Notes under the pieces: model-generated
Seen by the model: the letters and a program-made list of their open reading frames with translations, nothing else
Databases searched by the model: none
Told to the model about the DNA's origin: nothing
Shown: in pieces, positions 1 to 49,983 of the stretch
How the letters are laid out: every line of letters starts with the position of its first letter
Position numbering within the stretch: the stretch's first letter is position 1
Source of the DNA: a virus
Taxonomy: Duplodnaviria; Caudoviricetes
Virus record (IMG/VR): IMGVR_UViG_3300014208_000027
Coordinates: 1 to 64,000 of that record
Length of the DNA: 64,000 bases
Strand: one strand, 5' to 3'
Program-made: the position numbers and the translations under genes

Positions 1-1
1 A

Positions 2-373
2 GGTTTTATTAGAGAGTTTCAAAATAAAGTTAATTGGTATGAGATTCCCTATCGTCAAACTTTAAGCGAAGGTTTTATTAGAGAATTCCAAAATAAAGTT
101 CATTGGATTGATATTTCCCATTATCAAACTTTAAGCGAAGGTTTTATTAGAGAGTTTCAAAATAAAGTTAATTGGGCTAATATTTCCTATTATCAAACTT
201 TAAGCGAAGGTTTTATTAGAGAGTTTCAAAATAAAGTTAGTTGGGATAGGATTTCCTATTATCAAACTTTAAGCGAAGGTTTTATTAGAGAGTTTCAAAC
301 TAAAGTTGATTGGGATTATATTTCCAAAAACGACAATATTTCTAATGAAGTAAAAGAAGTGTTTAGGAAATAG
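2..373 (+). CDS. Trp-repeat protein copy A (5' end outside window); 23-aa repeats
   Basis: Own translation from nt 2: units xWxxISxxQTLSEGFIREFQNKV with 69-bp period (32,101,170,239), cap at 308, TAG at 371-373; not in ORF track because it has no start. Confidence 0.85.
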   Translation, partial: GFIREFQNKVNWYEIPYRQTLSEGFIREFQNKVHWIDISHYQTLSEGFIREFQNKVNWANISYYQTLSEGFIREFQNKVSWDRISYYQTLSEGFIREFQTKVDWDYISKNDNISNEVKEVFRK

Positions 374-387
374 GGCAGGTTTTAGAG

Positions 388-415
388 TTGACAAAGCATA
401 AAATCATGTCACAAT
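388..415 (+). promoter_or_regulatory. sigma70-type promoter TTGACA-16-CACAAT (sister copies at 2893-2920 and 4778-4805)
   Basis: Three near-identical copies TTGACAARGYATRAAAYCMTGTCAYAAT. Confidence 0.75.
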
Positions 416-448
416 AGAATGGTAGGGAAGAAAAAGGAAAAGATAAAA

Positions 449-601
449 ATGGAAAAGTGGTATGAATGGAGATGCATTGATGTTGCGACAAAGTCTTGTT
501 TGCTTGGCGTTGTTGTGGCGCGAACAAAAAAAGAAGCACAGTTTTTTGCTAATCAACAATTTTCTATTCCTTGCTTTGTTCTAAAAGGAAAGCTCCGATA
601 A
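449..601 (+). CDS. Small hypothetical protein
   Basis: ORF track 419..601; start moved to ATG after AAGGA. Confidence 0.6.
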   Translation: MEKWYEWRCIDVATKSCLLGVVVARTKKEAQFFANQQFSIPCFVLKGKLR

Positions 602-602
602 A

Positions 603-1880
603 ATGTCCGCTAAAAATATTGATGTTGACATTATTGAAAAAATTACTCCTTCTAAACCGGAACCTACTCAAGAACAAATAGATTCTTTTGATATTCGTAA
701 GTATTGTGTAAGTCTTCTTATGGATGAACCATTTTTCGCAGCATTATCTCGTAGAATAGATAAAATTTCTTCTTCTAGTTGCCCTACAGCAGGGGTAAGA
801 TTTAATAAATCTAAACAAAATTTTGAACTTGTTTATAATCCCAAATTTTTTCTATCCCTAGAAAATGGCACTCAATGTAGAGCAATTTTATTGCACGAGT
901 ATTATCACATTATTTTTGGGCATGTAACAGATAGAGGTCCAGGTGGATTTAAGGCAAATGGTTATGCCGGCGAAACAGTTTCTCAAATGTGGAATTATGC
1001 TGCTGACTTATCAATCAATTCTTTTTTGAAGGATATGCTACCACCTGACTTTGGTCTTGTACCAGGAAAACACCCTTTTGAGAATTATCCTTTGAATTTA
1101 AGTGCTGAACAGTATTATGAAATGATTAAAAAAGATCCTAATATCAAAAAAGTATACGTTTCATCGGATAGTGCTGGTGATCATTCTATGTGGGATGAAG
1201 ATGAAAATGGAAACCCTATAGATCAATCGACTAGAGAGCAAATTAACGAACAAATAAAAAATATTCTTGGTAAGGCTGTTAATGAATGCGCTAATAAAAA
1301 TTCATGGGGGACAGTTTCGGAAAGTTTAAGAAAAGATATTTTATCAAGGCTATCTTCTTTTGTTAATTGGAAGAATGTTCTACGTTATTTTATTAAGCAA
1401 AGTGTACGAAGTAGCAAAAGTAGTTCTATCAAAAAAATAAATAAAAGGTTTCCTTATATTCATGCTGGTAAAAAGACAAATAGAACAGCTAACATTGCAG
1501 TATCTATTGATCAATCGGGTTCAGTGTCAGATAATCTTTTAATGCAATTTTTCTCAGAATTAAATAAATTATCAGAATTAGCAAGTTTTACAGTAATTCC
1601 CTTCGATCATGAAGTAGCAATAGATAAAATTTATATTTGGAAAAAAGGAAAACATCAAAATTGTGAAAGAGTCTTAACAGGTGGTACAAATTTTGATGCA
1701 CCTACACAATATGTAAATGAGCATAGATTTGATGGTCATATAGTTTTAACTGATATGTGTGCTCCAAAGCCTATTGATTCAAAATGCCAAAGAATTTGGT
1801 TGACTACAACTGAAATTGCTGCAAAACCATATTTTGATACGAATGAAATAATTGTTCCTATTCCTGTTGTAGGAGATTGA
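603..1880 (+). CDS. DUF2201-type metallopeptidase-like + VWA domain protein (MoxR partner)
   Basis: LHEYYH (HExxH); DQSGS MIDAS, GGTNFD, VLTD in C-terminal VWA. Confidence 0.85.
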   Translation: MSAKNIDVDIIEKITPSKPEPTQEQIDSFDIRKYCVSLLMDEPFFAALSRRIDKISSSSCPTAGVRFNKSKQNFELVYNPKFFLSLENGTQCRAILLHEYYHIIFGHVTDRGPGGFKANGYAGETVSQMWNYAADLSINSFLKDMLPPDFGLVPGKHPFENYPLNLSAEQYYEMIKKDPNIKKVYVSSDSAGDHSMWDEDENGNPIDQSTREQINEQIKNILGKAVNECANKNSWGTVSESLRKDILSRLSSFVNWKNVLRYFIKQSVRSSKSSSIKKINKRFPYIHAGKKTNRTANIAVSIDQSGSVSDNLLMQFFSELNKLSELASFTVIPFDHEVAIDKIYIWKKGKHQNCERVLTGGTNFDAPTQYVNEHRFDGHIVLTDMCAPKPIDSKCQRIWLTTTEIAAKPYFDTNEIIVPIPVVGD

Positions 1881-1904
1881 CTTTTTCTGTCTGCAAGCTA
1901 GGAT
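1877..1904 (+). promoter_or_regulatory. Promoter TTGACT-16-TAGGAT, leaderless start at 1911
   Basis: ATG 7 nt after -10 hexamer; no SD. Confidence 0.65.
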
Positions 1905-1910
1905 CTAATC

Positions 1911-2273
1911 ATGACAAACCAAACATACCAAAAGTGGATGGCAGCATTAAAATTTAGTTGTGTTCCTATGACTGAAGATGAAATTGTAGAACATCAAAAT
2001 GCTGTAGAATGGTTTACTATTTTTGAAAAACAAAAGTTATCCGAAGGTTTTATTCGTAAATTTTACAATAAAGTGAATGTTGACTTTTTAGCAAGTAATG
2101 ATAAAAATGCAGTTGAGAAGGCCATAAGAGCAAATTTAACATTAATTTCCCACTATCAAGTGTTGAGTGAAGTATTTATTAGAGAATTTCAAGATATTTT
2201 GTGCTGGGATAATATTTTTTGGTATCAAAATCTTTCTAGTGAATTTATAAAAGAATTTTCTCATAAAAATTAA
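1911..2273 (+). CDS. Divergent Trp-repeat family protein
   Basis: QKLSEGFIRKF, YQVLSEVFIREF, YQNLSSEFIKEF units. Confidence 0.75.
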   Translation: MTNQTYQKWMAALKFSCVPMTEDEIVEHQNAVEWFTIFEKQKLSEGFIRKFYNKVNVDFLASNDKNAVEKAIRANLTLISHYQVLSEVFIREFQDILCWDNIFWYQNLSSEFIKEFSHKN

Positions 2274-2281
2274 GTTTCGTT

Positions 2282-2890
2282 ATGACAAATAAACTTAAAA
2301 TTGGTGATCTGGTAGAGTTCAAAAACAATCATCTTGTTGTTTTAGAATTCTTAACTTTAGAAGGTAAAGAGGAATATCCTTCCATTGAAATTATAAAAGT
2401 TATAGAATATCCTAATAATACGATTGGAATATATGAAATAAAAAATAATAAGGTTCAAAATAAAGTTGATTGGATAGATATTTCCTATTATCAAACTTTA
2501 AGCGAAGGTTTTATTAGAGAGTTTCAAAATAAAGTTGATTGGGATAATATTTCCTCTCGTCAAACTTTAAGCGAAGGTTTTATTAGAGAGTTTCAAAATA
2601 AAGTTGATTGGATTGAGATTTCCTATTATCAAACTTTAAGCGAAGGTTTTATTAGAGAGTTTCAAAATAAAGTTGATTGGATTAATATTTCCTATTATCA
2701 AACTTTAAGCGAAGGTTTTGTTAGAGAATTCCAAACTAAAGTTAATTGGTATGATATTTCCTATCGTCAAACCTTAAGCGAAGGTTTTGTTAGAGAGTTT
2801 CAAAATAAAGTTAAATGGGGTAATATTTCCAAAAACTATAAAATATCTAATGAAATTAAGAAGATGTTTAGAAAAGAAGGAAAATTCTAG
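2282..2890 (+). CDS. Trp-repeat protein copy B: N-terminal small beta-domain + five 23-aa repeats + cap
   Basis: Repeats 2468-2812 with 69-bp period; resembles 'tryptophan repeat' family first named in entomopoxvirus (from memory). Confidence 0.85.
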   Translation: MTNKLKIGDLVEFKNNHLVVLEFLTLEGKEEYPSIEIIKVIEYPNNTIGIYEIKNNKVQNKVDWIDISYYQTLSEGFIREFQNKVDWDNISSRQTLSEGFIREFQNKVDWIEISYYQTLSEGFIREFQNKVDWINISYYQTLSEGFVREFQTKVNWYDISYRQTLSEGFVREFQNKVKWGNISKNYKISNEIKKMFRKEGKF

Positions 2891-2953
2891 AGTTGACAAA
2901 GTATGAAATCCTGTCATAATAAAATGGTAGGGAAGAAAAAGGAAAAGATAAAA

Positions 2954-3217
2954 ATGGAAAAGTGGTATCGACCTGGGCATTTGGAAGAAATAAATAAAAA
3001 GAACTAAGAGATTCGAGAAACAATTGATAATATTCCCGAGGATAGAAAACAAGTGGTTATAAACCATATGAAAAATCTTCTTTTACTAGAAGACCCAAAG
3101 AGGAATATAACTCAACAAGATATTCGTGATAACAGTAGTTTATCTAGGGAAGAAAAAGTGCTTTTGGCGCATTTATTTGAAGAATATATTAAAAATTCCA
3201 AAAAAGGAAAGGAATAA
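2954..3217 (+). pseudogene. Chimeric ORF with in-frame TAA (3005-3007); 3' part paralogous to 3222..3455
   Basis: MEKWYRPGHLEEINKKN*EIRETIDNIPEDRKQVVINH... vs IFDNIPEDRKQAVINH. Confidence 0.7.
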
Positions 3218-3221
3218 ATAA

Positions 3222-3455
3222 ATGAGTAAGTGGAACAAAACAAGAGAATTAAAACAAAAAACTCAAAAAATATTTGATAATATTCCCGAGGATAGGAAAC
3301 AAGCAGTGATAAATCACGCTGAAAAATTATTGGAATTTGAAGGTAAAGATAGCTTCTCTCAAGAAATTGTTGACGAAAACAAAAGTCTTTCTAGTGAAGA
3401 AAAGTTATTTTTGGCTGAAGTAATCGATAATATTTTTGAGGAAAGGAATAAATAA
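3222..3455 (+). CDS. Hypothetical protein
   Basis: ORF with SD AAGGA; paralog immediately upstream. Confidence 0.75.
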   Translation: MSKWNKTRELKQKTQKIFDNIPEDRKQAVINHAEKLLEFEGKDSFSQEIVDENKSLSSEEKLFLAEVIDNIFEERNK

Positions 3456-4520
3456 GTGTCTATTTCTTTTGAAGCTTTGAACAAGTGTATCGATTCTGTT
3501 ATTGAGACAAGGTTTCCAATTTTGCTTCGCTCTGCTCATGGGCAAGGGAAGTCTTCGCTAGTATATCAAATAGGCGAACGTCTAAACCTCCAAGTGATAG
3601 AGCGTAGGGCCAGTCAAATGACCGAAGGTGACCTTCTAGGTCTTCCTAAGGTTGAGAATGATAGGACTACTTGGCTACCACCTGACTGGTTTGCTGTTGC
3701 CTGTGAACAGCCTGTAATCCTTTTTATCGATGAACTTGACCGGGCTACCCAAGAGGTTCGTCAAGGTTTCTTTGAGCTAGCAGATTCTAGAAAGATTGCT
3801 GGGCATACTTTGCACCCTGACACGATTATTTTTGCTGCTGTTAATGGTGGCGAACATGTTGCGCATTATCAAGTTGGTGAGATGGATCCGGCTGAGCTTG
3901 ACAGGTGGGTAACCTTCGATCTTGAGCCTACCATTGAAGACTGGCTTACTTGGGGAAAAAATAAAATAAATTCTTTAATTTGGGATTTTATTAACGAAAA
4001 TCACCAACATCTTGAGCATAAAGGTAATTTTGAGCCTAACAAAGTTTATCCTTCTCGAAGAAGTTGGCATAGGCTATCAGATGCGTTCAAAAATGTTAAA
4101 GATTTTTCAGAATATGTAAAATCTAATAATAATTTTTATAACTTAACTAAGGCTTTTATTGGCCTTGAAGGAGCAATTGCGTTGCAAGATTTTGTAAAGA
4201 ATTATAATAAGGCTGTAACAGTAGAAAATATCCTAGAAGAGGGAAAAATTAAATTAACAGAAAACTGGGGAATTCCAGAACATACAGCATTCGTTGAAAA
4301 GTTAAATTCCGTTTGGTCTGATAATAAACCTTTCTCAGATAAAAGAATTAAAAATCTTGCAAAATATTTTATGAAATTACCAGCAGAACCCGCTAGTAAG
4401 GTTTATGCAGATCTAAGCAAGGCCAATATCGAAGTTATGAGAAGTTTGCACCTTCAACCTGGAGTTAAAGCACGGTTAATCGAAATTCACACTAAAGAAA
4501 TCGAACTAAATTCAAAATGA
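3456..4520 (+). CDS. MoxR-like AAA+ ATPase
   Basis: Walker A variant SAHGQGKS, Walker B FIDELDR, MDPAELDRW. Confidence 0.85.
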   Translation: MSISFEALNKCIDSVIETRFPILLRSAHGQGKSSLVYQIGERLNLQVIERRASQMTEGDLLGLPKVENDRTTWLPPDWFAVACEQPVILFIDELDRATQEVRQGFFELADSRKIAGHTLHPDTIIFAAVNGGEHVAHYQVGEMDPAELDRWVTFDLEPTIEDWLTWGKNKINSLIWDFINENHQHLEHKGNFEPNKVYPSRRSWHRLSDAFKNVKDFSEYVKSNNNFYNLTKAFIGLEGAIALQDFVKNYNKAVTVENILEEGKIKLTENWGIPEHTAFVEKLNSVWSDNKPFSDKRIKNLAKYFMKLPAEPASKVYADLSKANIEVMRSLHLQPGVKARLIEIHTKEIELNSK

Positions 4521-4540
4521 TTTTTTTCTACTTTCCTACC

Positions 4541-4568
4541 TTGCTTTTCTCCTTTCACCTGCTATAGT
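4541..4568 (+). promoter_or_regulatory. Promoter TTGCTT-16-TATAGT, leaderless start at 4575; 26/28 identical to promoter at 27416-27443(-)
   Basis: Direct comparison of the two sequences. Confidence 0.75.
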
Positions 4569-4574
4569 TTCAAT

Positions 4575-4781
4575 ATGTCAAATAAACTTGAAATCGGAAC
4601 GTTAGTTAAAATAAAAGAAAATACTTATGGATATTCTGAATATCTAAAATTTAATAATCAAATTGGTGTTATTATTGAATATGGGAAGATTGGTAGGCAA
4701 GGACAATTATATCAAGTTGTGGTTTTTAATGATTTTACTAGGTGTCCTTTATACGAGGATGCTTTTACGATTTTAGATTGA
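4575..4781 (+). CDS. Small SH3/KOW-like protein
   Basis: MSNKLEIGTLVKI start, 68 aa, beta-rich. Confidence 0.65.
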   Translation: MSNKLEIGTLVKIKENTYGYSEYLKFNNQIGVIIEYGKIGRQGQLYQVVVFNDFTRCPLYEDAFTILD

Positions 4782-4844
4782 CAAGGCATGAAACCATGTC
4801 ATAATAGAATGGTAAGGCAAGAAAAAAATAAATTGGAAAGGAAA

Positions 4845-5261
4845 ATGAAAATGAGCGAGAATCAAAATGTTTCTACTGTTGAATTCGTCAAGGTCAAGCG
4901 TAATCGAAAGTCAGGCGGCAAGGTTACGTGTAAGATTTGTGGTAAGTTAGGCCATATGGCAAAGACCTGCTCGGAGAATCCCGACCGGACTGTTAAGATT
5001 GAAAAAGTTGCCAAGGTAAAGAAAAATAGTTTGTATAAAGAATATTTAACCCTTGATGAAATTAAAGTTGTAGAATCGTTTAGAGCAATGCAGCAAGAAA
5101 TTTCTGTTGAAAAAAATGATTTTAATCTTGCTAAAAAAGTAGCTAGCCATCTAAATCAGTTAGATGAATTAGAACAATCTACTAAGGATTCTCAACTAGT
5201 TCAATCTGACAATGCCGCTGTACTAGCTGAGATCCTTGCCGAAACTGGTAAACTTTTCTAG
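4845..5261 (+). CDS. CCHC zinc-knuckle protein
   Basis: CKICGKLGHMAKTC = C-x2-C-x4-H-x4-C after basic stretch; start moved to ATG after GAAAGGA. Confidence 0.75.
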   Translation: MKMSENQNVSTVEFVKVKRNRKSGGKVTCKICGKLGHMAKTCSENPDRTVKIEKVAKVKKNSLYKEYLTLDEIKVVESFRAMQQEISVEKNDFNLAKKVASHLNQLDELEQSTKDSQLVQSDNAAVLAEILAETGKLF

Positions 5262-5430
5262 GCACAAAATAAATAAACTTTCCTACTTGACATTCCTTCC
5301 CTACCTGTCATAATAAATTAAAGAATCAAACAACAAAGGAAAACAAAAATGACATTAAGTCTTATATTTCAGAAGTGTTTCACAATGTTTTGAATATTGA
5401 GGCTGATTAAACAAAAAACAGAATAGCCTA

Positions 5431-5459
5431 TTGACAGATTAGTTTGGATCGTTCATAAT
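5431..5459 (+). promoter_or_regulatory. Promoter TTGACA-17-CATAAT (similar ones at 5287-5314, 7014-7041, 7707-7734, 8092-8120, 9011-9039)
   Basis: -35/-10 hexamers with 16-17 nt spacers ahead of successive small genes. Confidence 0.7.
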
Positions 5460-5524
5460 CTAAGGGTAGGCGAGAAAAAAAGTTTTCCAAACCTGCCTTA
5501 ACAGGCAAGAAAGTGAAATGAAAA

Positions 5525-6556
5525 ATGGCGCATATGATCGAGAATGCAGCTTTTCGTGGTGGCGCGCAAACCGCTTGGCATAAGCTTGGCAATGAAATCA
5601 CATTTGATACAGCCGTCGAAAATTTGGCAGTATGTGGCCTTGACTGGCATGCACAAGTTGAGCAAGCTTTTGCATACAATTCAAACCTCGATAGGTATTC
5701 ACCTATTGACGGCGCCTACAGTGTGAACCGATATAATGCAAGTAATAATTTCATGAATGCGGTTTCAGTTGTAGGTGGACGATTTACTGTTATGCAACCC
5801 GCAGAGCTTGCCCAATTTGGCGATACTATTTGTGAGGCGTCTAATGGTAAAGCTATGCTCGAAACCGGTGGGTGCCTTGACAACGGTCGAAAAGTTTGGT
5901 TCCTATTCAAACACAATGGCGTTCAACAATTTCAAGGAGATAGTAGCGCATTCCAAAATTATTTCTTGCTATGGACTGGCCTTGACGGTAGCACGCCTAC
6001 TGAGATCCTTTTAACGCCTACTAGGGTAGTATGCAACAATACACTTTCTCTAGCTGTAAAGGGTGCGCAACGCAAAATTAGTGTAAGACATACACAGTCT
6101 GGTCATACTCGTCTTGCCGAAGCGGTACGTGTGCTAGGATCTGCCGATAATTACTTTAACAAATTTAATGAGTTGTACAATACGCTTACAAACAAGGCGT
6201 TTACTAAGCCACAATTCGAAATGTTAGTAAAATTACTTATGCCTGCTAAAGATGAAAATGATGTGTCTACGCGAACAAAAAATAATCGTGCCAACTTGCT
6301 TGCACAATGGGATACTACTCCAGGTGCTATGCCGGGGACTGCCGCAGGCGCCATTAACGCAATTAGTTACTACGAGGAACACTTGAGCCCTACTCGCGGA
6401 GTCGAAGGAAATCAGTTACTTGAACGCCGTGCCGAAAATAGCGTATCGTTGACCATGACTCAATCTGCTCTAGATCTTGTATTAGCCGCTACACTTGAAC
6501 AACGTAATCTAAACTCTATTAGTTCTAGCACGCCACTACTTAACTCGCTTCTTTAA
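5525..6556 (+). CDS. DUF932 family phage/plasmid-like protein
   Basis: MAHMIE..AWHKLG start, ETGGCLDNGRKVW, TPTRVVCNNTL. Confidence 0.85.
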   Translation: MAHMIENAAFRGGAQTAWHKLGNEITFDTAVENLAVCGLDWHAQVEQAFAYNSNLDRYSPIDGAYSVNRYNASNNFMNAVSVVGGRFTVMQPAELAQFGDTICEASNGKAMLETGGCLDNGRKVWFLFKHNGVQQFQGDSSAFQNYFLLWTGLDGSTPTEILLTPTRVVCNNTLSLAVKGAQRKISVRHTQSGHTRLAEAVRVLGSADNYFNKFNELYNTLTNKAFTKPQFEMLVKLLMPAKDENDVSTRTKNNRANLLAQWDTTPGAMPGTAAGAINAISYYEEHLSPTRGVEGNQLLERRAENSVSLTMTQSALDLVLAATLEQRNLNSISSSTPLLNSLL

Positions 6557-6581
6557 CATCTTGAAAGGTAAGGTGAATTTT

Positions 6582-6785
6582 ATGAAAGTATTTTTTGATG
6601 TTGTAAAAACAGAATGTTGGCCCGCCCAATGGTATGGAGGCCCAGTGTTCGTTGGGCAAAAAATGTCTAATGCAACTTGCTATTACTGGAGATCTTTTGA
6701 TAGTGCAAAAAAGTATTGTAATGAGCAGAATGATCATCTAAATCATTTGTTAATTGGACGCGAGGGAGATCATGAGATCCTTTAA
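6582..6785 (+). CDS. Hypothetical protein
   Basis: ORF 6561..6785, start moved to ATG after AAGGT. Confidence 0.6.
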   Translation: MKVFFDVVKTECWPAQWYGGPVFVGQKMSNATCYYWRSFDSAKKYCNEQNDHLNHLLIGREGDHEIL

Positions 6786-6951
6786 TGTGAATGATATTCA
6801 ATACATAATGACTTGCGAGGGTAACAAATATTTTGTTAGGCGCGATTACACTTTCGAAAATAATGACCGCGTTGACCCGATAACCAAGGAGCAAGTAAAA
6901 TACTTCTTGGCCTCCGACAAGGAGAGTGATTATGCGTCGCAAAGTAATTAA
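6772..6951 (+). CDS. Hypothetical protein
   Basis: ATG after GAGGGAG, overlaps upstream stop. Confidence 0.55.
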   Translation: MRSFNVNDIQYIMTCEGNKYFVRRDYTFENNDRVDPITKEQVKYFLASDKESDYASQSN

Positions 6952-7073
6952 GATCATTATTCGCAAGTAGTTTCAACGCTTTACAACTTTCTTCACTGCA
7001 ATAAAAATAAAACTTGCATTGTACCCAAACCGTGCTATTATTAATCATGGTCAATCAAACAGGGGAATAAAAA

Positions 7074-7253
7074 ATGCCGACAAACGTGGAACTAGATGCA
7101 ATCATTGACGAGGAAGAACGTGAAATGCTTCAGGATTGGCGCGACAAGGTAGCAGAGATGAGTCACGCCGATTTAGTTCAGGCGTTTTGCAATTGCAAGG
7201 GGAAGTATAAAGCGATTGCCCGTCGTCAAATGAAAAAGGAAGGGATTATCTAA
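7074..7253 (+). CDS. Hypothetical protein (59 aa, below track cut-off)
   Basis: Own translation MPTNVELDAIIDEEER...; SD AGGGGA. Confidence 0.65.
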   Translation: MPTNVELDAIIDEEEREMLQDWRDKVAEMSHADLVQAFCNCKGKYKAIARRQMKKEGII

Positions 7254-7254
7254 T

Positions 7255-7458
7255 ATGACATGGAAACTGGTAGAGCGCACCGAACGCTATGACGTTTATT
7301 TTTCTACCATCGGCGAGTGGTTCCTAGTCGACGCAAACGATATGCCAGATCAACATGATGTTGGCCTGTTGACATATCAGGAAGCCGTGGCAGAATATCA
7401 TGGCTGGAATGATTTACTAGCGCGAGAAGCCGGCCAGCTTGAACTATTCGCGGCATAG
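7255..7458 (+). CDS. Hypothetical protein
   Basis: ORF track; abuts upstream stop. Confidence 0.65.
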   Translation: MTWKLVERTERYDVYFSTIGEWFLVDANDMPDQHDVGLLTYQEAVAEYHGWNDLLAREAGQLELFAA

Positions 7459-7474
7459 GAAAGGAACTACTCTA

Positions 7475-7654
7475 ATGGATCCAACTGCTTGTCTCAAAAG
7501 GTTAAGGGAGCTTATGGATGAATATAATCGTGGTGAATCGGTTGACTCGCACGAAATAGTTGAATTATTTTATTCACTTGACAAATGGATAACGCGCGGG
7601 GGATCCTTGCCTAAGCAATGGGTCGAGCCCAAAGGTATGTATACTTTTCGATAA
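7475..7654 (+). CDS. Hypothetical protein
   Basis: MDPTACL start after AAGGA. Confidence 0.65.
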   Translation: MDPTACLKRLRELMDEYNRGESVDSHEIVELFYSLDKWITRGGSLPKQWVEPKGMYTFR

Positions 7655-7798
7655 GCGTAACAATATCACAGCCTCATAATAATTCACTAGGCAACAAAAA
7701 TAAAGCTTGCACTATCTTGACACCGTGCTATTATTAGATGTGGTTAATTAGATAAGAGGTAAGGGACTGACGAAACCTCTAGGAAAGGTTGGCGATCT

Positions 7799-8095
7799 AT
7801 GATCTATTCTCCAGTTGATATGGTTAGCGCGCAAGATTCTTACGATAATCTTCAAGAATATCATGATGATATTACTTATGAGCAACTTGATCAAGAGGCG
7901 AGAAAGCATGAACTTTTAGACTTGGCATATTATTTGAATGAACGATTGACGTGTTCGTATTGCTCGGGAACCGGCTGCAATGAATGTTACCGGCCAAAAT
8001 ATGGCGATCCCGTCTCGAAATACCGTGCACTAGATAAGGCCAGCCGAGAAGTTGTTGACGAAATGATTTATTTATTAAAATCACTTAGGTATTGA
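7799..8095 (+). CDS. Hypothetical protein with CxxCxGxGCxxC (DnaJ-like Zn motif)
   Basis: CSYCSGTGCNEC. Confidence 0.6.
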   Translation: MIYSPVDMVSAQDSYDNLQEYHDDITYEQLDQEARKHELLDLAYYLNERLTCSYCSGTGCNECYRPKYGDPVSKYRALDKASREVVDEMIYLLKSLRY

Positions 8096-16233: not shown

Positions 16234-16575
16234 TTACAATTTTTCAGGAGCTATTCTGTTATAATAGTTTTTGCGCGCTGAAGGAAACTGTTCTTCCCAA
16301 TTTGGCGCATACTTCTTTTTAACATCGGAAGAGTTAGCAGGATTGTTAGCAACATAATCTATATATCCTTTTAAATATTCCCAAAATGTTTGTACAAATT
16401 CATCTGAAAGAATTTGATATTTTGCAATAGAATACCAATCGACATAATTTTTAAATTTTTTTATCACTTCTTCAGACAATGTAATCTCGCTAGAAACTTT
16501 TTTCCAATCTATAAAATCTGGTATAGTGCTAGCAGCAATTAGAAAACTTTTAATCACTCTTGGATCTTTATTCAT
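16234..16575 (-). CDS. Divergent Trp-repeat family protein
   Basis: IDWKKVSSEITLSEEVIKKFKNYVDWYSIAKYQILSDEF. Confidence 0.7.
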   Translation of the reverse strand: MNKDPRVIKSFLIAASTIPDFIDWKKVSSEITLSEEVIKKFKNYVDWYSIAKYQILSDEFVQTFWEYLKGYIDYVANNPANSSDVKKKYAPNWEEQFPSARKNYYNRIAPEKL

Positions 16576-27007: not shown

Positions 27008-27409
27008 CTAGAATTTTCCTTTTTTCTTAAATTTTGTTTTTACTTCATTGGAAATGTTTTTATTTTGAGAAATCCAATTCCAATGAACTTTAGTTTGAAA
27101 CTCTCTAATAAAACCTTCGCTTAAAGTTTGATAATAGGAAACATTATACCAATCAACTTTATTTTGAAACTCTCTAATAAAACCTTCGCTTAAAGTTTGA
27201 TAATGGGAAACATTATACCAATCAACTTTATCTTTAACTTTGTTATCTTTTATTTCATATAATTCAATAGTAGAATTAGGGTATTCTATAACTTTTATAA
27301 TTTTAATAGAGGGATAATTGTCTCTACCTTCTAAAGTTAGAAACTCTAGAATAACAAGATGATTATTTTTGAACTTTACCAGATCACCAATTTCAAGTTT
27401 GCTTGACAT
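27008..27409 (-). CDS. Trp-repeat protein copy C: N-domain + two repeats + cap, leaderless
   Basis: Paralog of 2282..2890; start moved to MSSKLEIGD, promoter 27416-27443. Confidence 0.85.
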   Translation of the reverse strand: MSSKLEIGDLVKFKNNHLVILEFLTLEGRDNYPSIKIIKVIEYPNSTIELYEIKDNKVKDKVDWYNVSHYQTLSEGFIREFQNKVDWYNVSYYQTLSEGFIREFQTKVHWNWISQNKNISNEVKTKFKKKGKF

Positions 27410-27452
27410 GACTAAACTATAGCAGGTGGAAGGAGGAAAGCAAGAGGAAAAA

Positions 27453-29024
27453 TTAAATTGATAAAATAGCAGCTTCACAAAAAAGAATTGTTGTAGCAGC
27501 AGATATAGCATGTCTTACAGCACAGCAAACTACTTTGGTCGGGTCAATAATCCCAGCATCAAATATATTTTCTATTTTATCTGTTGCTGCGTTATATCCT
27601 AAATCATTTGAAAAGTCACACTTTGACTCTATAAGTTCTACATTCTTTTTAGCATTTTGAATAAGTTTTTTAAATGGTTCTTGGATAGCCTTTTGAACAG
27701 TTAAAATACCAAATCTAACATCTTCTTTTTCTATGCCTAGTAACAAGTTCTCCATAGAAGAAGAAATCTTCATTAAAGCTACACCACCACCTGTCAAAAT
27801 ACCTTGCTCAATAGCAGATCTACAAGCTTCAACAGCGTCTTCAATACGGTGACGCTTTTCTACCACTTCCATTTCAGTATTTCCACCAACATAAATAATT
27901 GCTATACCTGAAGAAAGTCTAGTAATTCGCTCTTGAGACTTTTTGCACTCTTCCATATCATCAGAATTTTTAATTAACTCTTTTAAATCATCAATACGAG
28001 TCTTAACTTTTTCCAGCTCTCCATTACCACCTACAATAGCAGTATAATTTTTCTGCACCTCTACTTTTTTAGCAGAGCCGAAATGTTGTAACTTTATATC
28101 TTTAATTCTAATACCACTTTCTCTAGAAATAAATGTAGAACCAGTGTTAATACATAAATCTTCTAGAATATTCCGTCGCTCTAAACCATATCTTGGTGGC
28201 TTAATAGCTACAATTTTCATATTATTTTTAATACTATTGAGAACTAAAGCAGCTAATGCTTGACCAGAGACTTCTTCGGAGATTAAAACTAGTGGCTTTT
28301 CGGTTCGAGCGGCAATCTCAAGAATAGGCATCATTTCTTGAACAGTGGTAAACTTATAATCTGTTACAAATACTAAGACATTTTCATGGTTTGCAGCTTG
28401 ACGACGTTCGTCAGTTACAAATTGTGGTGACACATAACCAGAATCAAACGTAAAACCTTCAATGATTTTTAATACAGTATCAGTAGTTTTCCCATTTTCA
28501 ATAATAACTGCCCCATCTTTGCCAACACTATCAATAGCTTCAGACACCATATTACCAATGGTAGAATCATTATTGGCTGAAATAGTGGCAATATTTGTCA
28601 AATCTTGTTTAGAAGTGATTTGTTTGGAATCTTTTTCTAGTTGTTCAATGACATACTTTCCGGCTAGTTCAATACCATCACGAATATCTAAAGAAGATAC
28701 ATTAGAAGAAATATATTTCTTCACGTTTTGCAGGAGAGCGTTAAGAAGAACCAAAACTGTAGTGCTACCATCACCAGCCAATGTGGCATTCTTTTCAGAA
28801 ATCTCCTGTGCTAACCTAACACCTAAATTTTCATAAGGGTCTTGAAGTTCAAACGCCTTAGAAACGGTATATCCATCTTTAGTAGCGATAGGTTTCTGTT
28901 CTCTTGGAGCGAGAAATACAGTGTTCCCTTTTGGACCAAGCGTCAAACTAACAACATCAGTAAGTTTTTTTATGCCATCAAATAGTTTTTGATAAAGTTC
29001 TGGATTAACCTTATAATCAATCAT
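27453..29024 (-). CDS. groEL: Chaperonin GroEL-like
   Basis: TLGPKG, TKDG, AGDGSTT, ISANND, GGG, GIIDPTKV; no GGM tail. Confidence 0.92.
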   Translation of the reverse strand: MIDYKVNPELYQKLFDGIKKLTDVVSLTLGPKGNTVFLAPREQKPIATKDGYTVSKAFELQDPYENLGVRLAQEISEKNATLAGDGSTTVLVLLNALLQNVKKYISSNVSSLDIRDGIELAGKYVIEQLEKDSKQITSKQDLTNIATISANNDSTIGNMVSEAIDSVGKDGAVIIENGKTTDTVLKIIEGFTFDSGYVSPQFVTDERRQAANHENVLVFVTDYKFTTVQEMMPILEIAARTEKPLVLISEEVSGQALAALVLNSIKNNMKIVAIKPPRYGLERRNILEDLCINTGSTFISRESGIRIKDIKLQHFGSAKKVEVQKNYTAIVGGNGELEKVKTRIDDLKELIKNSDDMEECKKSQERITRLSSGIAIIYVGGNTEMEVVEKRHRIEDAVEACRSAIEQGILTGGGVALMKISSSMENLLLGIEKEDVRFGILTVQKAIQEPFKKLIQNAKKNVELIESKCDFSNDLGYNAATDKIENIFDAGIIDPTKVVCCAVRHAISAATTILFCEAAILSI

Positions 29025-49662: not shown

Positions 49663-49983
49663 ATGAAAAACTTTTATTGTGAATGGTTTAATATATGCCA
49701 AAATGTAAAATTGTCTGAATCATTCATAGAGGAACACCAAGAAGAATTAGATTGGTCAATAGTATCTTCCTATCAAACTCTATCTGAAGACTTTATAGAG
49801 AAATTCAAAGATAAAGTGCATTGGGGACATATTTCAAGTAATCAATATTTGTCACAAGCCTTTATAGAACGATTTAAAAATAATGTAAATTGGGTGAATT
49901 TGTTTGCTAATAATAAGATATTGTTAAGAACTAGGCAATACTTCATGAATGAGTTTGTGCAAGGAAACAAAAAAGATGTCTAA
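49663..49983 (+). CDS. Divergent Trp-repeat family protein
   Basis: LDWSIVSSYQTLSEDFIEKFKDKVHWGHISSNQYLSQAF. Confidence 0.75.
   Translation: MKNFYCEWFNICQNVKLSESFIEEHQEELDWSIVSSYQTLSEDFIEKFKDKVHWGHISSNQYLSQAFIERFKNNVNWVNLFANNKILLRTRQYFMNEFVQGNKKDV

Follow-up and report, generated by a model that had tools for sequence, protein, structure and literature searches.

Tryptophan-repeat proteins of a groundwater phage combine a homogenised 23-residue scaffold with a diverse helix face, a putative binding surface

Three closely related genes of a phage, here called A, B and C, encode tandem units of 23 residues whose DNA is almost identical from unit to unit except in a few codons, which raises the question of how the units are kept alike and what the changing residues might be for. 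All three genes lie wholly or partly in the window, i.e. the whole stretch of 64,000 nucleotides that was analysed. Tandem Repeats Finder reported 69-bp arrays at 1-325 (gene A; 4.7 copies, score 492), 2454-2830 (gene B; 5.5 copies, score 577) and 27080-27231 (gene C; 2.2 copies, score 283), and open frames span all of them, which bears out the units that the initial annotation had described in three close paralogs. With the more diverged members, eight genes of this kind are present in the 203-kb groundwater phage genome:

genome 203004-203498, outside the window: 5' part of gene A, N-terminal domain and 4.5 units (units 1-5)
1..373, plus strand: 3' part of gene A, rest of unit 5 at 2-31 and units 6-9 at 32-307
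308-373, plus strand: 3' end of gene A, degenerate cap unit and stop
1911..2273, plus strand: diverged member D (120 aa), immediately upstream of gene B; phrog_3532, E 1.8e-20
2282..2890, plus strand: gene B (202 aa), N-terminal beta-rich domain at 2282-2467
2468-2812, plus strand: five 69-bp units of gene B, followed by its cap unit and basic tail at 2813-2890
16234..16575, minus strand: diverged member E (113 aa); phrog_3532, E 1.9e-11
27008..27409, minus strand: gene C (133 aa), N-terminal domain at 27409-27224
27223-27086, minus strand: two units of gene C, followed by its cap at 27085-27008
49663..49983, plus strand: diverged member F (106 aa); phrog_3532, E 2.5e-24
genome 151460-152545 and 176465-177553, outside the window: two further members

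The phrog_3532 matches confirm D, E and F as the diverged relatives proposed earlier. The ends of the record cut gene A in two: window positions 1-373 resume the reading frame of genome 203004-203498, with five bases (AGCGA, or 5 + 69n) missing at the junction. Because the 5' half sits at the other record end, gene A has at least nine units plus the degenerate cap, although near-identical 69-bp arrays assembled from short metagenomic reads are possibly collapsed or mis-ordered and the record breaks inside this very array. Thus, of the unit numbers given initially (at least 4, 5 and 2), those of B (five plus cap) and C (two plus cap) stand, while copy A is twice the supposed length. The start of gene C is most likely at 27409 rather than at the first ATG of the open reading frame, at 27511, and a phage GroEL gene lies directly upstream.

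The 16 full units of A, B and C are each exactly 23 aa long and carry W at position 2. Nearly invariant across them, synonymous sites included, are 45 of the 69 bases; variable nucleotide sites make up 5/45 in codons 9-23 vs 16/24 in codons 1-8 (Fisher p = 3.5e-6), and unit-to-unit change falls on codons 1, 3, 4, 7 and 8. The amino-acid entropy is 1.1-2.0 bits at these five positions and 0 at 12 of the 15 scaffold positions, with minimal variation at the other three (16 and 21; synonymous variants only at 10, 18 and 19). The contrast between a near-identical scaffold (positions 9-23) and five changing positions, noted from the sequence at the outset, therefore holds.

Judged by sequence similarity, A, B and C belong to the viral "tryptophan repeat gene family" known from entomopoxviruses, of which they are, within the window, a typical and very clean example: they consist of tandem units of about 23 aa with one Trp each, resemble named members and form a multigene family in their genome. 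The AlphaFold2 (AF2) model matched MSV027 in BFVD (45% identity, 141 columns, E 1.1e-15), and the BFVD matches also include MSV205, AMV029, four other entomopoxviruses and phage G gp558-563; the entomopoxvirus family proteins match at 45-50% identity (E 1e-15 to 1e-12). Over the family comparisons as a whole, identity is 39-50% across 120-155 columns, and the predicted fold agrees. The top AlphaFold DB clusters are named "tryptophan repeat gene family" (56% identity), tblastn retrieved BpSp gp045, annotated under the same name, and the phrog_3532 profile matched with E 2.2e-45. The name covers the entomopoxvirus proteins MSV027, MSV029, MSV205 and AMV029 and is in use for proteins of Bacillus phages BpSp and G as well. 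The entomopoxvirus proteins and A, B and C share the 23-residue unit, W at position 2, the motifs I-S, Q-x-L-S-E-x-F-I and F, and multigene expansion inside one viral genome; A, B and C differ in having an N-terminal beta-rich domain of their own and a bacterial rather than an insect host. Swarms of paralogs occupy at least 40 places in Listeria phage LPJP1, 38 in Bacillus phage BpSp and 25 in phage G, and the protein library holds ~5,900 cluster representatives of the family at 50% identity.

Other searches returned little. Scanning the repeat proteins with Pfam, NCBIfam and PADLOC models gave nothing above noise, with no HEAT_PBS, HEAT, Ank or LRV match in the Pfam scan at E up to 1, and in a sequence-profile search of the PDB engineered OspA was the sole match, a spurious, periodic one. 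The N-terminal domain of A, B and C has no relatives in IMG/VR outside this genome, and member F yielded no homologue candidates in a word-index search, the sensitivity of which is limited by the index. Neither a Pfam model nor a solved structure of the family turned up, and the searchable papers contain no analysis of its function, structure or variable face. Afonso et al. 1999 (J Virol 73:533; cited via PMC7728225) reportedly named the entomopoxvirus family; this name, and its use in the annotation of phage genomes, had been missed by the initial annotation.

Structure prediction, at high confidence, stacks the 23-residue units into an alpha-solenoid, a helical spring. AF2 models the repeats with pLDDT 92-99, each unit forming two short helices that keep strictly to the same register (DSSP: helix A = unit positions 2-8, helix B = 13-18), while the N-terminal domain of A, B and C is modelled poorly (pLDDT about 53). 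The core of the unit would be packed by W2, I5, S6, L11, F15, I16, F19 and V23. On the helical wheel positions 3, 4, 7 and 8 occupy the arc 100-240 degrees, opposite the conserved W2, I5, S6 and Q9 (arc 300-40 degrees), and position 1 is the N-cap; positions 3, 4, 7 and 8 are thus predicted to make up the exposed side of helix A, an assignment that derives from the DSSP register and helical-wheel geometry rather than from measured accessibility. The structure prediction suggested as a check at the outset accordingly places the variable residues on one helix face, as had been anticipated from their spacing. Among solved structures the nearest are no more than generic solenoids (DARPin, Z 5.2; alphaRep fusions, Z 5.1, 4.8 and 4.3; designer PPR, Z 5.0; LRV, Z 4.1), all of them weak matches, and Foldseek found no match in the PDB at E up to 1e-3.

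The units of A, B and C evolve in concert, as indicated by a scaffold dS between the paralogs of 0.03-0.10 vs 0.30-0.47 in their N-terminal domains, which supports the earlier proposal of homogenisation by recombination; the nucleotide identity of their cap units is 62-76%. At codons 1, 3, 4, 7 and 8 the NG86 method gave dN 0.518 and dS 0.196 (dN/dS about 2.6), compared with dN 0.0156 and dS 0.077 (dN/dS 0.2) at scaffold codons 9-23, figures that are noisy, because the genome is AT-rich and the units recombine, are not independent of one another and offer few synonymous sites. In three unrelated metagenome genes with repeats of this family, omega at the variable codons is 3.7 (L005), 6.1 (L007) and about 1.1 (L006), the scaffolds of L005 and L007 being near-identical as well. 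Values above 1 are suggestive of positive diversification, and together with the recurrence of the pattern in unrelated family members they support the diversified face claimed initially.

On balance we favour the view that A, B and C are alpha-solenoid Trp-repeat proteins in which the scaffold is homogenised and the diverse helix-A face serves as a putative binding surface, most likely for proteins. The scaffold DNA is kept near-identical by recombination or gene conversion, which acts between units and between the genes, while the face of helix A (positions 3, 4, 7 and 8 together with the N-cap, position 1) stays different from unit to unit. The stacked faces would then line up into a long ridge rich in Tyr, His, Asp, Asn and Arg, putatively a ligand-binding surface with proteins as the most likely ligands, and new specificities could arise from altered unit numbers and from shuffling of 8-codon cassettes. 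A, B and C have in common a small N-terminal beta-rich domain, hence they would be adaptors that bring different targets to one function, conceivably in host takeover or counter-defence.

The strongest competitor, which we nevertheless consider unlikely, is a structural or spacer solenoid in which the scaffold is kept by folding and short-patch gene conversion, conversion halts at the heterologous 24-nt island, and positions 1, 3, 4, 7 and 8 drift neutrally with no role in recognition. Conversion tracts that end at heterology might in theory even out the 45-nt block and nothing else, and both the omega of about 1.1 in L006 and the noise of the dN/dS estimates are compatible with drift; however, omega reaches 2.6, 3.7 and 6.1 in three of the four lineages. 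Moreover, the other exposed positions of the unit (10, 14, 17, 18, 20 and 22) are variable across the family yet frozen in A, B and C, so exposure alone fails to explain which sites vary. Neutral drift is further opposed by the enrichment of Tyr at the variable positions, which is typical of binding sites.

A family-wide set of 1,704 units from 260 proteins displays the same tendency, with an entropy of 3.8-4.0 bits at positions 3, 4 and 7, where the ratio of within- to between-protein mismatches is 0.94-0.96 vs 0.73-0.81 at positions 10, 14, 17, 18 and 20. The units contain 1,471 distinct residue quartets at the variable positions, the ten commonest amounting to 3%; many quartets are hydrophobic or aromatic, and Tyr constitutes 19% of the variable-position residues. 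This distribution bears directly on the suggestion that the units could be a "programmable" TALE/PPR/PUF-type reader of nucleic acids, with one unit per base recognised via the variable residues. Near-identical units with few hypervariable codons are indeed a hallmark of TALE genes, and Xanthomonas TALE repeats likewise vary in unit number among paralogs and have their units shuffled by recombination; in addition, the weak fold matches include a PPR protein, and DarT-like ssDNA ADP-ribosyltransferases occur as fusion partners of some family members. However, the quartets do not form a discrete code, five residues vary per unit compared with two in TALE repeats and one to three in known codes generally, and A and B, two of the three close paralogs, are acidic (pI 5.9 and 6.0, net charge -5.7 and -1.4), unlike the basic TALE repeats. 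Furthermore, the unit is 23 aa long vs 34 aa in TALE, to which there is no sequence or fold match, and F-box and RING fusions in the family suggest protein substrates. For PPR, with a unit of 35 aa, there is no Pfam match, and the designer PPR (Z 5.0) ranks level with ankyrin and alphaRep. A reader of this type is therefore improbable and the TALE/PPR-like code is left unsupported; protein binding is the likelier function in view of the missing discrete code and the acidity of two of the three proteins.

About equally improbable is the possibility that the repeats bind carbohydrates or the cell envelope, e.g. to decorate the virion or to anchor it to the wall, in the manner of the aromatic-rich choline-binding or cell-wall-binding repeats of about 20 residues. 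The aromatic and polar character of the variable surface (Tyr, His, Asn, Asp, Arg) would suit such a role, the homologue P0096 bears a muramidase label as given by its source, and two members of this genome start with a tag common to candidate virion proteins. On the other hand, the predicted fold is all-alpha while wall-binding repeats are beta-hairpins, inspection of the A, B and C sequences by eye revealed no N-terminal hydrophobic leader, and eukaryotic viruses have abundant members of the family, fused with intracellular ubiquitin-ligase domains. Hypermutation of the variable codons by a diversity-generating retroelement, to which the restriction of variation to few codons in otherwise identical sequence might point, is extremely improbable, as substitutions also occur outside adenine positions and a search of the complete 203-kb record, with positive controls, found no reverse transcriptase (PF00078).

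A putative protein-binding ridge on helix A finds its nearest parallels in alphaRep (HEAT_PBS) and DARPin proteins, in which hypervariable helix-face positions are reportedly used for binder libraries (Urvoas et al. 2010 for alphaRep, Binz et al. 2003 for DARPin). These too are built of stacked two-helix units with a conserved scaffold and variability at i, i+1, i+4 and i+5 of one helix. The likeness is one of working principle rather than of membership: the Trp-repeat unit has 23 residues vs 31-33 in alphaRep and DARPin, its helices, of 7 and 6 residues, are far shorter, and neither a sequence-profile match at E up to 1 nor a Foldseek match in the PDB links them, although HEAT_PBS is found on 12-31% of the members of neighbouring Atlas clusters. 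LRV (PDB 1LRV; Pfam LRV, LRV_2) likewise has a very short two-helix unit (24 residues) and forms a right-handed superhelix, and LRV_2 occurs on 17% of the members of one neighbouring Atlas cluster; the Z score of its fold match (133 residues aligned) does not suffice to assert a common fold, and it has no sequence match to the Trp-repeat proteins.

Family members elsewhere are fused to RING, DUF7666 and DUF3846 domains, to a DSP phosphatase and, in clusters, to F-box and DarT; in a scan of 20 of the 92 long homologues a phosphatase domain was the single Pfam assignment. In this genome two other members consist of a larger body with the same repeats at its C-terminal end, a layout that would fit a targeting module plus effector, as with the RING, F-box, DarT, phosphatase and DUF7666 partners. 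For the 361-aa member, Atlas neighbours at TM 0.37-0.38 are the only basis on which an ART-PolyVal-like body may be considered, as a lead; its body used as a homologue query gave one weak match only, and single-sequence AF2 of the protein reached pLDDT 36.5.

More tentatively, we speculate that the whole family could be a natural virus-borne binder scaffold, in use across jumbo phages, poxviruses and giant viruses, with units interchangeable by recombination, five-residue patches diversified by selection, and specificities coupled to effectors. It would be a 23-residue analogue of DARPins and alphaReps, the effectors being E3 ligase domains, ADP-ribosyltransferases, phosphatases or the N-terminal domain of A, B and C, which would represent three specificities of one adaptor. 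Concerted units with a diverse helix face in several unrelated lineages turn the "hypothetical repeat protein" of a family that forms 25-40-copy swarms in some jumbo phages into a testable hypothesis, namely that a viral binder scaffold sets the target specificity of the attached effector domains. If true, a large block of the dark matter of jumbo-phage and giant-virus genomes would be explained, and a very compact natural repeat scaffold would be available for binder engineering.

Regarding the neighborhood, megablast of window positions 1-8000 gave no match among phage records. The repeat genes stand outside a conserved module around the neighbouring VWA-peptidase gene, because none of the 44 IMG/VR loci related via that gene contains a Trp-repeat gene within 4.5 kb. 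Short sequence elements recur around the paralogs:

383..415, plus strand: duplicated 3' element after gene A, with a shared 14-mer overlapping the stop region
2888..2920, plus strand: the same 3' element after gene B
4556..4781, plus strand: 15-mer 5' element at 4556-4570, then a 68-aa gene at 4575-4781
27414..27428, minus strand: 15-mer 5' element before gene C

The 15-mer is identical before gene C, gene A (genome 202985) and the 68-aa gene, whose product has only its first 24 residues in common with A, B and C and is devoid of Trp repeats. The 14-mer of the 3' element holds a sigma-70-like site (TTGACA, 16 nt, TG-CACAAT), and the copy at 2888..2920 is the best promoter-like site of the region, with 11/12 matches and an extended -10.

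The three close Trp-repeat paralogs (genes A, B and C) have a common build, in which an N-terminal domain of ~62 residues is followed by n units of exactly 23 residues each and by a degenerate last ("cap") unit with a basic tail. The 69-bp arrays identified by Tandem Repeats Finder, all three located inside open reading frames, are:
window 1-325: gene A
window 2454-2830: gene B
window 27080-27231: gene C
Gene A is split by the ends of the source record (203,498 bp, with the window as its first 64 kb): genome 203004-203498 holds 4.5 units along with the N-terminal domain, and the frame runs on into window 2-373. The record ends with CAAACTTTA and restarts with AGGTTTT, which implies a gap of five bases (AGCGA, or 5 + 69n) at the junction, with the frame carried on. 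As the junction joins both halves of the gene, A has at least 9 units, with 5 in B and 2 in C. Since the record starts and ends within gene A, the phage genome is circular or circularly permuted; the assembler break fell within array A, and the "linear" label of the record reflects this break in a repeat array.

A, B and C belong to the tryptophan repeat gene family, as evidenced by the following matches. All eight Trp-repeat members of the genome fall into phrog_3532 of PHROGs (function unannotated). tblastn revealed that jumbo phages of Firmicutes harbor swarms of paralogs: Listeria phage LPJP1 is matched in at least 40 places, Bacillus phage BpSp in 38 and phage G in 25. One match, BpSp gp045, is annotated as "tryptophan repeat gene family protein". 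The AlphaFold2 model matched MSV027, MSV205, AMV029 and other same-named entomopoxvirus proteins in BFVD (39-50% identity, E-values down to 1e-15), as well as pithovirus, marseillevirus and iridovirus proteins, and the best-matching AlphaFold DB clusters bear the name of the family. An exhaustive phmmer search (E-values up to 1e-3) reported 5,939 cluster representatives, and scans of the repeat proteins against Pfam, NCBIfam and PADLOC gave no match. In the searchable literature the name "tryptophan repeat" is confined to annotation tables and passing remarks, and we found neither a structure nor a function for the family, nor any analysis of its variable positions; the genes are new members of a known, unstudied family.

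The initial annotation noted that positions 1, 3, 4, 7 and 8 change from unit to unit on a nearly identical scaffold (positions 9-23), and codon counts in the 16 full units of A, B and C bear this out: a single codon is used at 12 of the 15 scaffold codons, and 5 of 45 nucleotide sites vary in the scaffold, compared with 16 of the 24 sites of codons 1-8 (Fisher p = 3.5e-6). Each of the five positions accommodates 3-5 different residues (entropy 1.1-2.0 bits). The Nei-Gojobori method yielded dN 0.0156 and dS 0.077 for the scaffold, and dN 0.518 and dS 0.196 for the variable codons; the resulting dN/dS (omega) of ~2.6 is only suggestive, because the units are non-independent and synonymous sites are few. 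Across the family (1,704 units from 260 homologs) the entropy is highest at positions 3, 4 and 7 (3.8-4.0 bits, near the maximum of 4.3), followed by positions 8 and 1. At positions 3, 4 and 7 units of one protein differ as much as units of unrelated proteins (ratio 0.94-0.96); scaffold positions predicted to be exposed (10, 14, 17, 18 and 20) are homogenised inside proteins (ratio 0.73-0.81). Three unrelated metagenomic genes exhibit near-identical scaffolds, with scaffold codons unlike those of A, B and C and variable-codon omega of 3.7, 6.1 and 1.1. Judging from these sequences, the variable face is a family-wide property.

AlphaFold2 (45-sequence alignment; pLDDT 92-99 over the repeats) predicted two short helices in every unit, helix A (positions 2-8) and helix B (positions 13-18), which recur with strict periodicity. 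According to the geometry derived from the DSSP register of this model, the conserved W2, I5, S6 and Q9 occupy the 300-40 degree arc of the helical wheel and presumably face the core, positions 3, 7, 4 and 8 lie on the opposite arc (100-240 degrees), and position 1 is the N-cap. The proposed solenoid with a variable face is supported by both the structure prediction and the evolutionary pattern. Foldseek identified no solved structure matching the model, and an exhaustive aligner reported generic solenoids only (DARPin/ankyrin, alphaRep, designer PPR and LRV; Z 4-5). The N-terminal domain of A, B and C was modelled with low confidence as three strands, and its relatives were found within this genome only.

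The synonymous divergence of the internal-unit scaffold blocks between genes (dS 0.03-0.10) is far below that of the N-terminal domains (dS 0.30-0.47), and the caps are merely 62-76% identical at the DNA level, which indicates that internal units were exchanged or converted among units and paralogs after A, B and C had diverged. The recurrence of eight-codon cassettes between genes fits with shuffling: A contains H-W-I-D-I-S-H-Y twice, K-W-G-N-I-S is common to A unit 4 and the B cap, and N-W-Y-E/D to A6 and B5. A diversity-generating retroelement as the source of the variable codons is disfavored, since no reverse transcriptase (PF00078) is detectable in the complete 203-kb record.

The suggestion that the units read nucleic acids in a "programmable" manner is disfavored. 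The 1,704 units contain 1,471 distinct residue quartets, of which the ten commonest account for 3%, and reveal no discrete residue code; Tyr makes up 19% of residues at variable positions, and both A and B have an acidic pI (5.9 and 6.0). Together these features argue against base reading of the TALE/PPR type and for recognition of protein, or possibly another ligand. Elsewhere in the family the repeat array is combined with RING finger, DUF7666, DUF3846 and DSP phosphatase domains, and with F-box and DarT clusters; AMV254 is described as an F-box member (PMC7728225). In an unrelated metagenome contig (L007, 1-447) a Trp-repeat gene adjoins a gene for a 2H-SAK (2H phosphoesterase, "Swiss army knife") domain, a further hint of conflict-system neighborhoods.

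Analysis of the genomic neighborhood in the window revealed:
603-1880: DUF2201 VWA-metallopeptidase gene
3456-4520: MoxR-type AAA (AAA_5) ATPase gene
4556-4781: 15-mer element and 68-aa gene (identical 15-mer upstream)
27453-29024 (-): GroEL-type chaperonin gene (Pfam Cpn60_TCP1, E 3e-59)
The first two genes, which usually appear as a pair, are separated here by B, the diverged member D (at 1911) and two small ORFs. The VWA gene of 44 related IMG/VR loci (41-53% identity) is in no case accompanied by a Trp-repeat gene, and thus B and D are lineage-specific insertions and not partners of the VWA module. The GroEL gene lies directly upstream of C, and its nearest cultured relatives (from Flavobacterium, Staphylococcus and Vibrio phages) are just 37-38% identical.

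The duplications take in the gene flanks. A, C and the 68-aa gene at 4575 each have the 15-mer ahead of their starts. The first 24 residues encoded by the 68-aa gene resemble those of A, B and C (50% identity), and this gene lacks Trp repeats; a common 5' module seems to be reused. A 14-mer with a strong sigma-70-like site occurs 3' of A, B and C. Past the stops of A and B ~85 bp are duplicated (window 383-470 and 2888-2975), of which C has the first 14-mer only. The duplicate holds a near-consensus sigma-70-like promoter (TTGACA, 16 nt, TG-CATAAT), followed by a small ORF, of 60 aa downstream of A and 27 aa downstream of B, with the conserved start M-V-G-K-K-K-E-K-I-K-M-E-K-W and a divergent remainder.

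Two larger proteins of this genome (361 and 362 aa) carry three C-terminal Trp units each and a common N-terminal tag, M-x-F-N-F-K ... L-W-E, which also opens four other, unrelated ORFs; the genome coordinates of all six are:
76726-77808 (-): tag-bearing ORF
97052-97348: tag-bearing ORF
98924-99859 (-): tag-bearing ORF
151460-152545: tag-bearing ORF with Trp repeats
176465-177553: tag-bearing ORF with Trp repeats
180620-181078: tag-bearing ORF
Across these six otherwise unrelated ORFs, two of which end in Trp repeats, the tag reads M-(x)-F-N/L-F-K/R and leads into an amphipathic stretch, and it may serve as a capsid-targeting or processing signal. The Atlas neighbors (TM 0.37-0.38) of the body of the 361-aa protein provide a weak lead to its possible ART-like nature. 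Window 4788-5261 encodes a basic protein of 157 aa, in which one zinc-knuckle-like CCHC motif scores slightly under the cut-off (Pfam zf-CCHC, E 7e-4).
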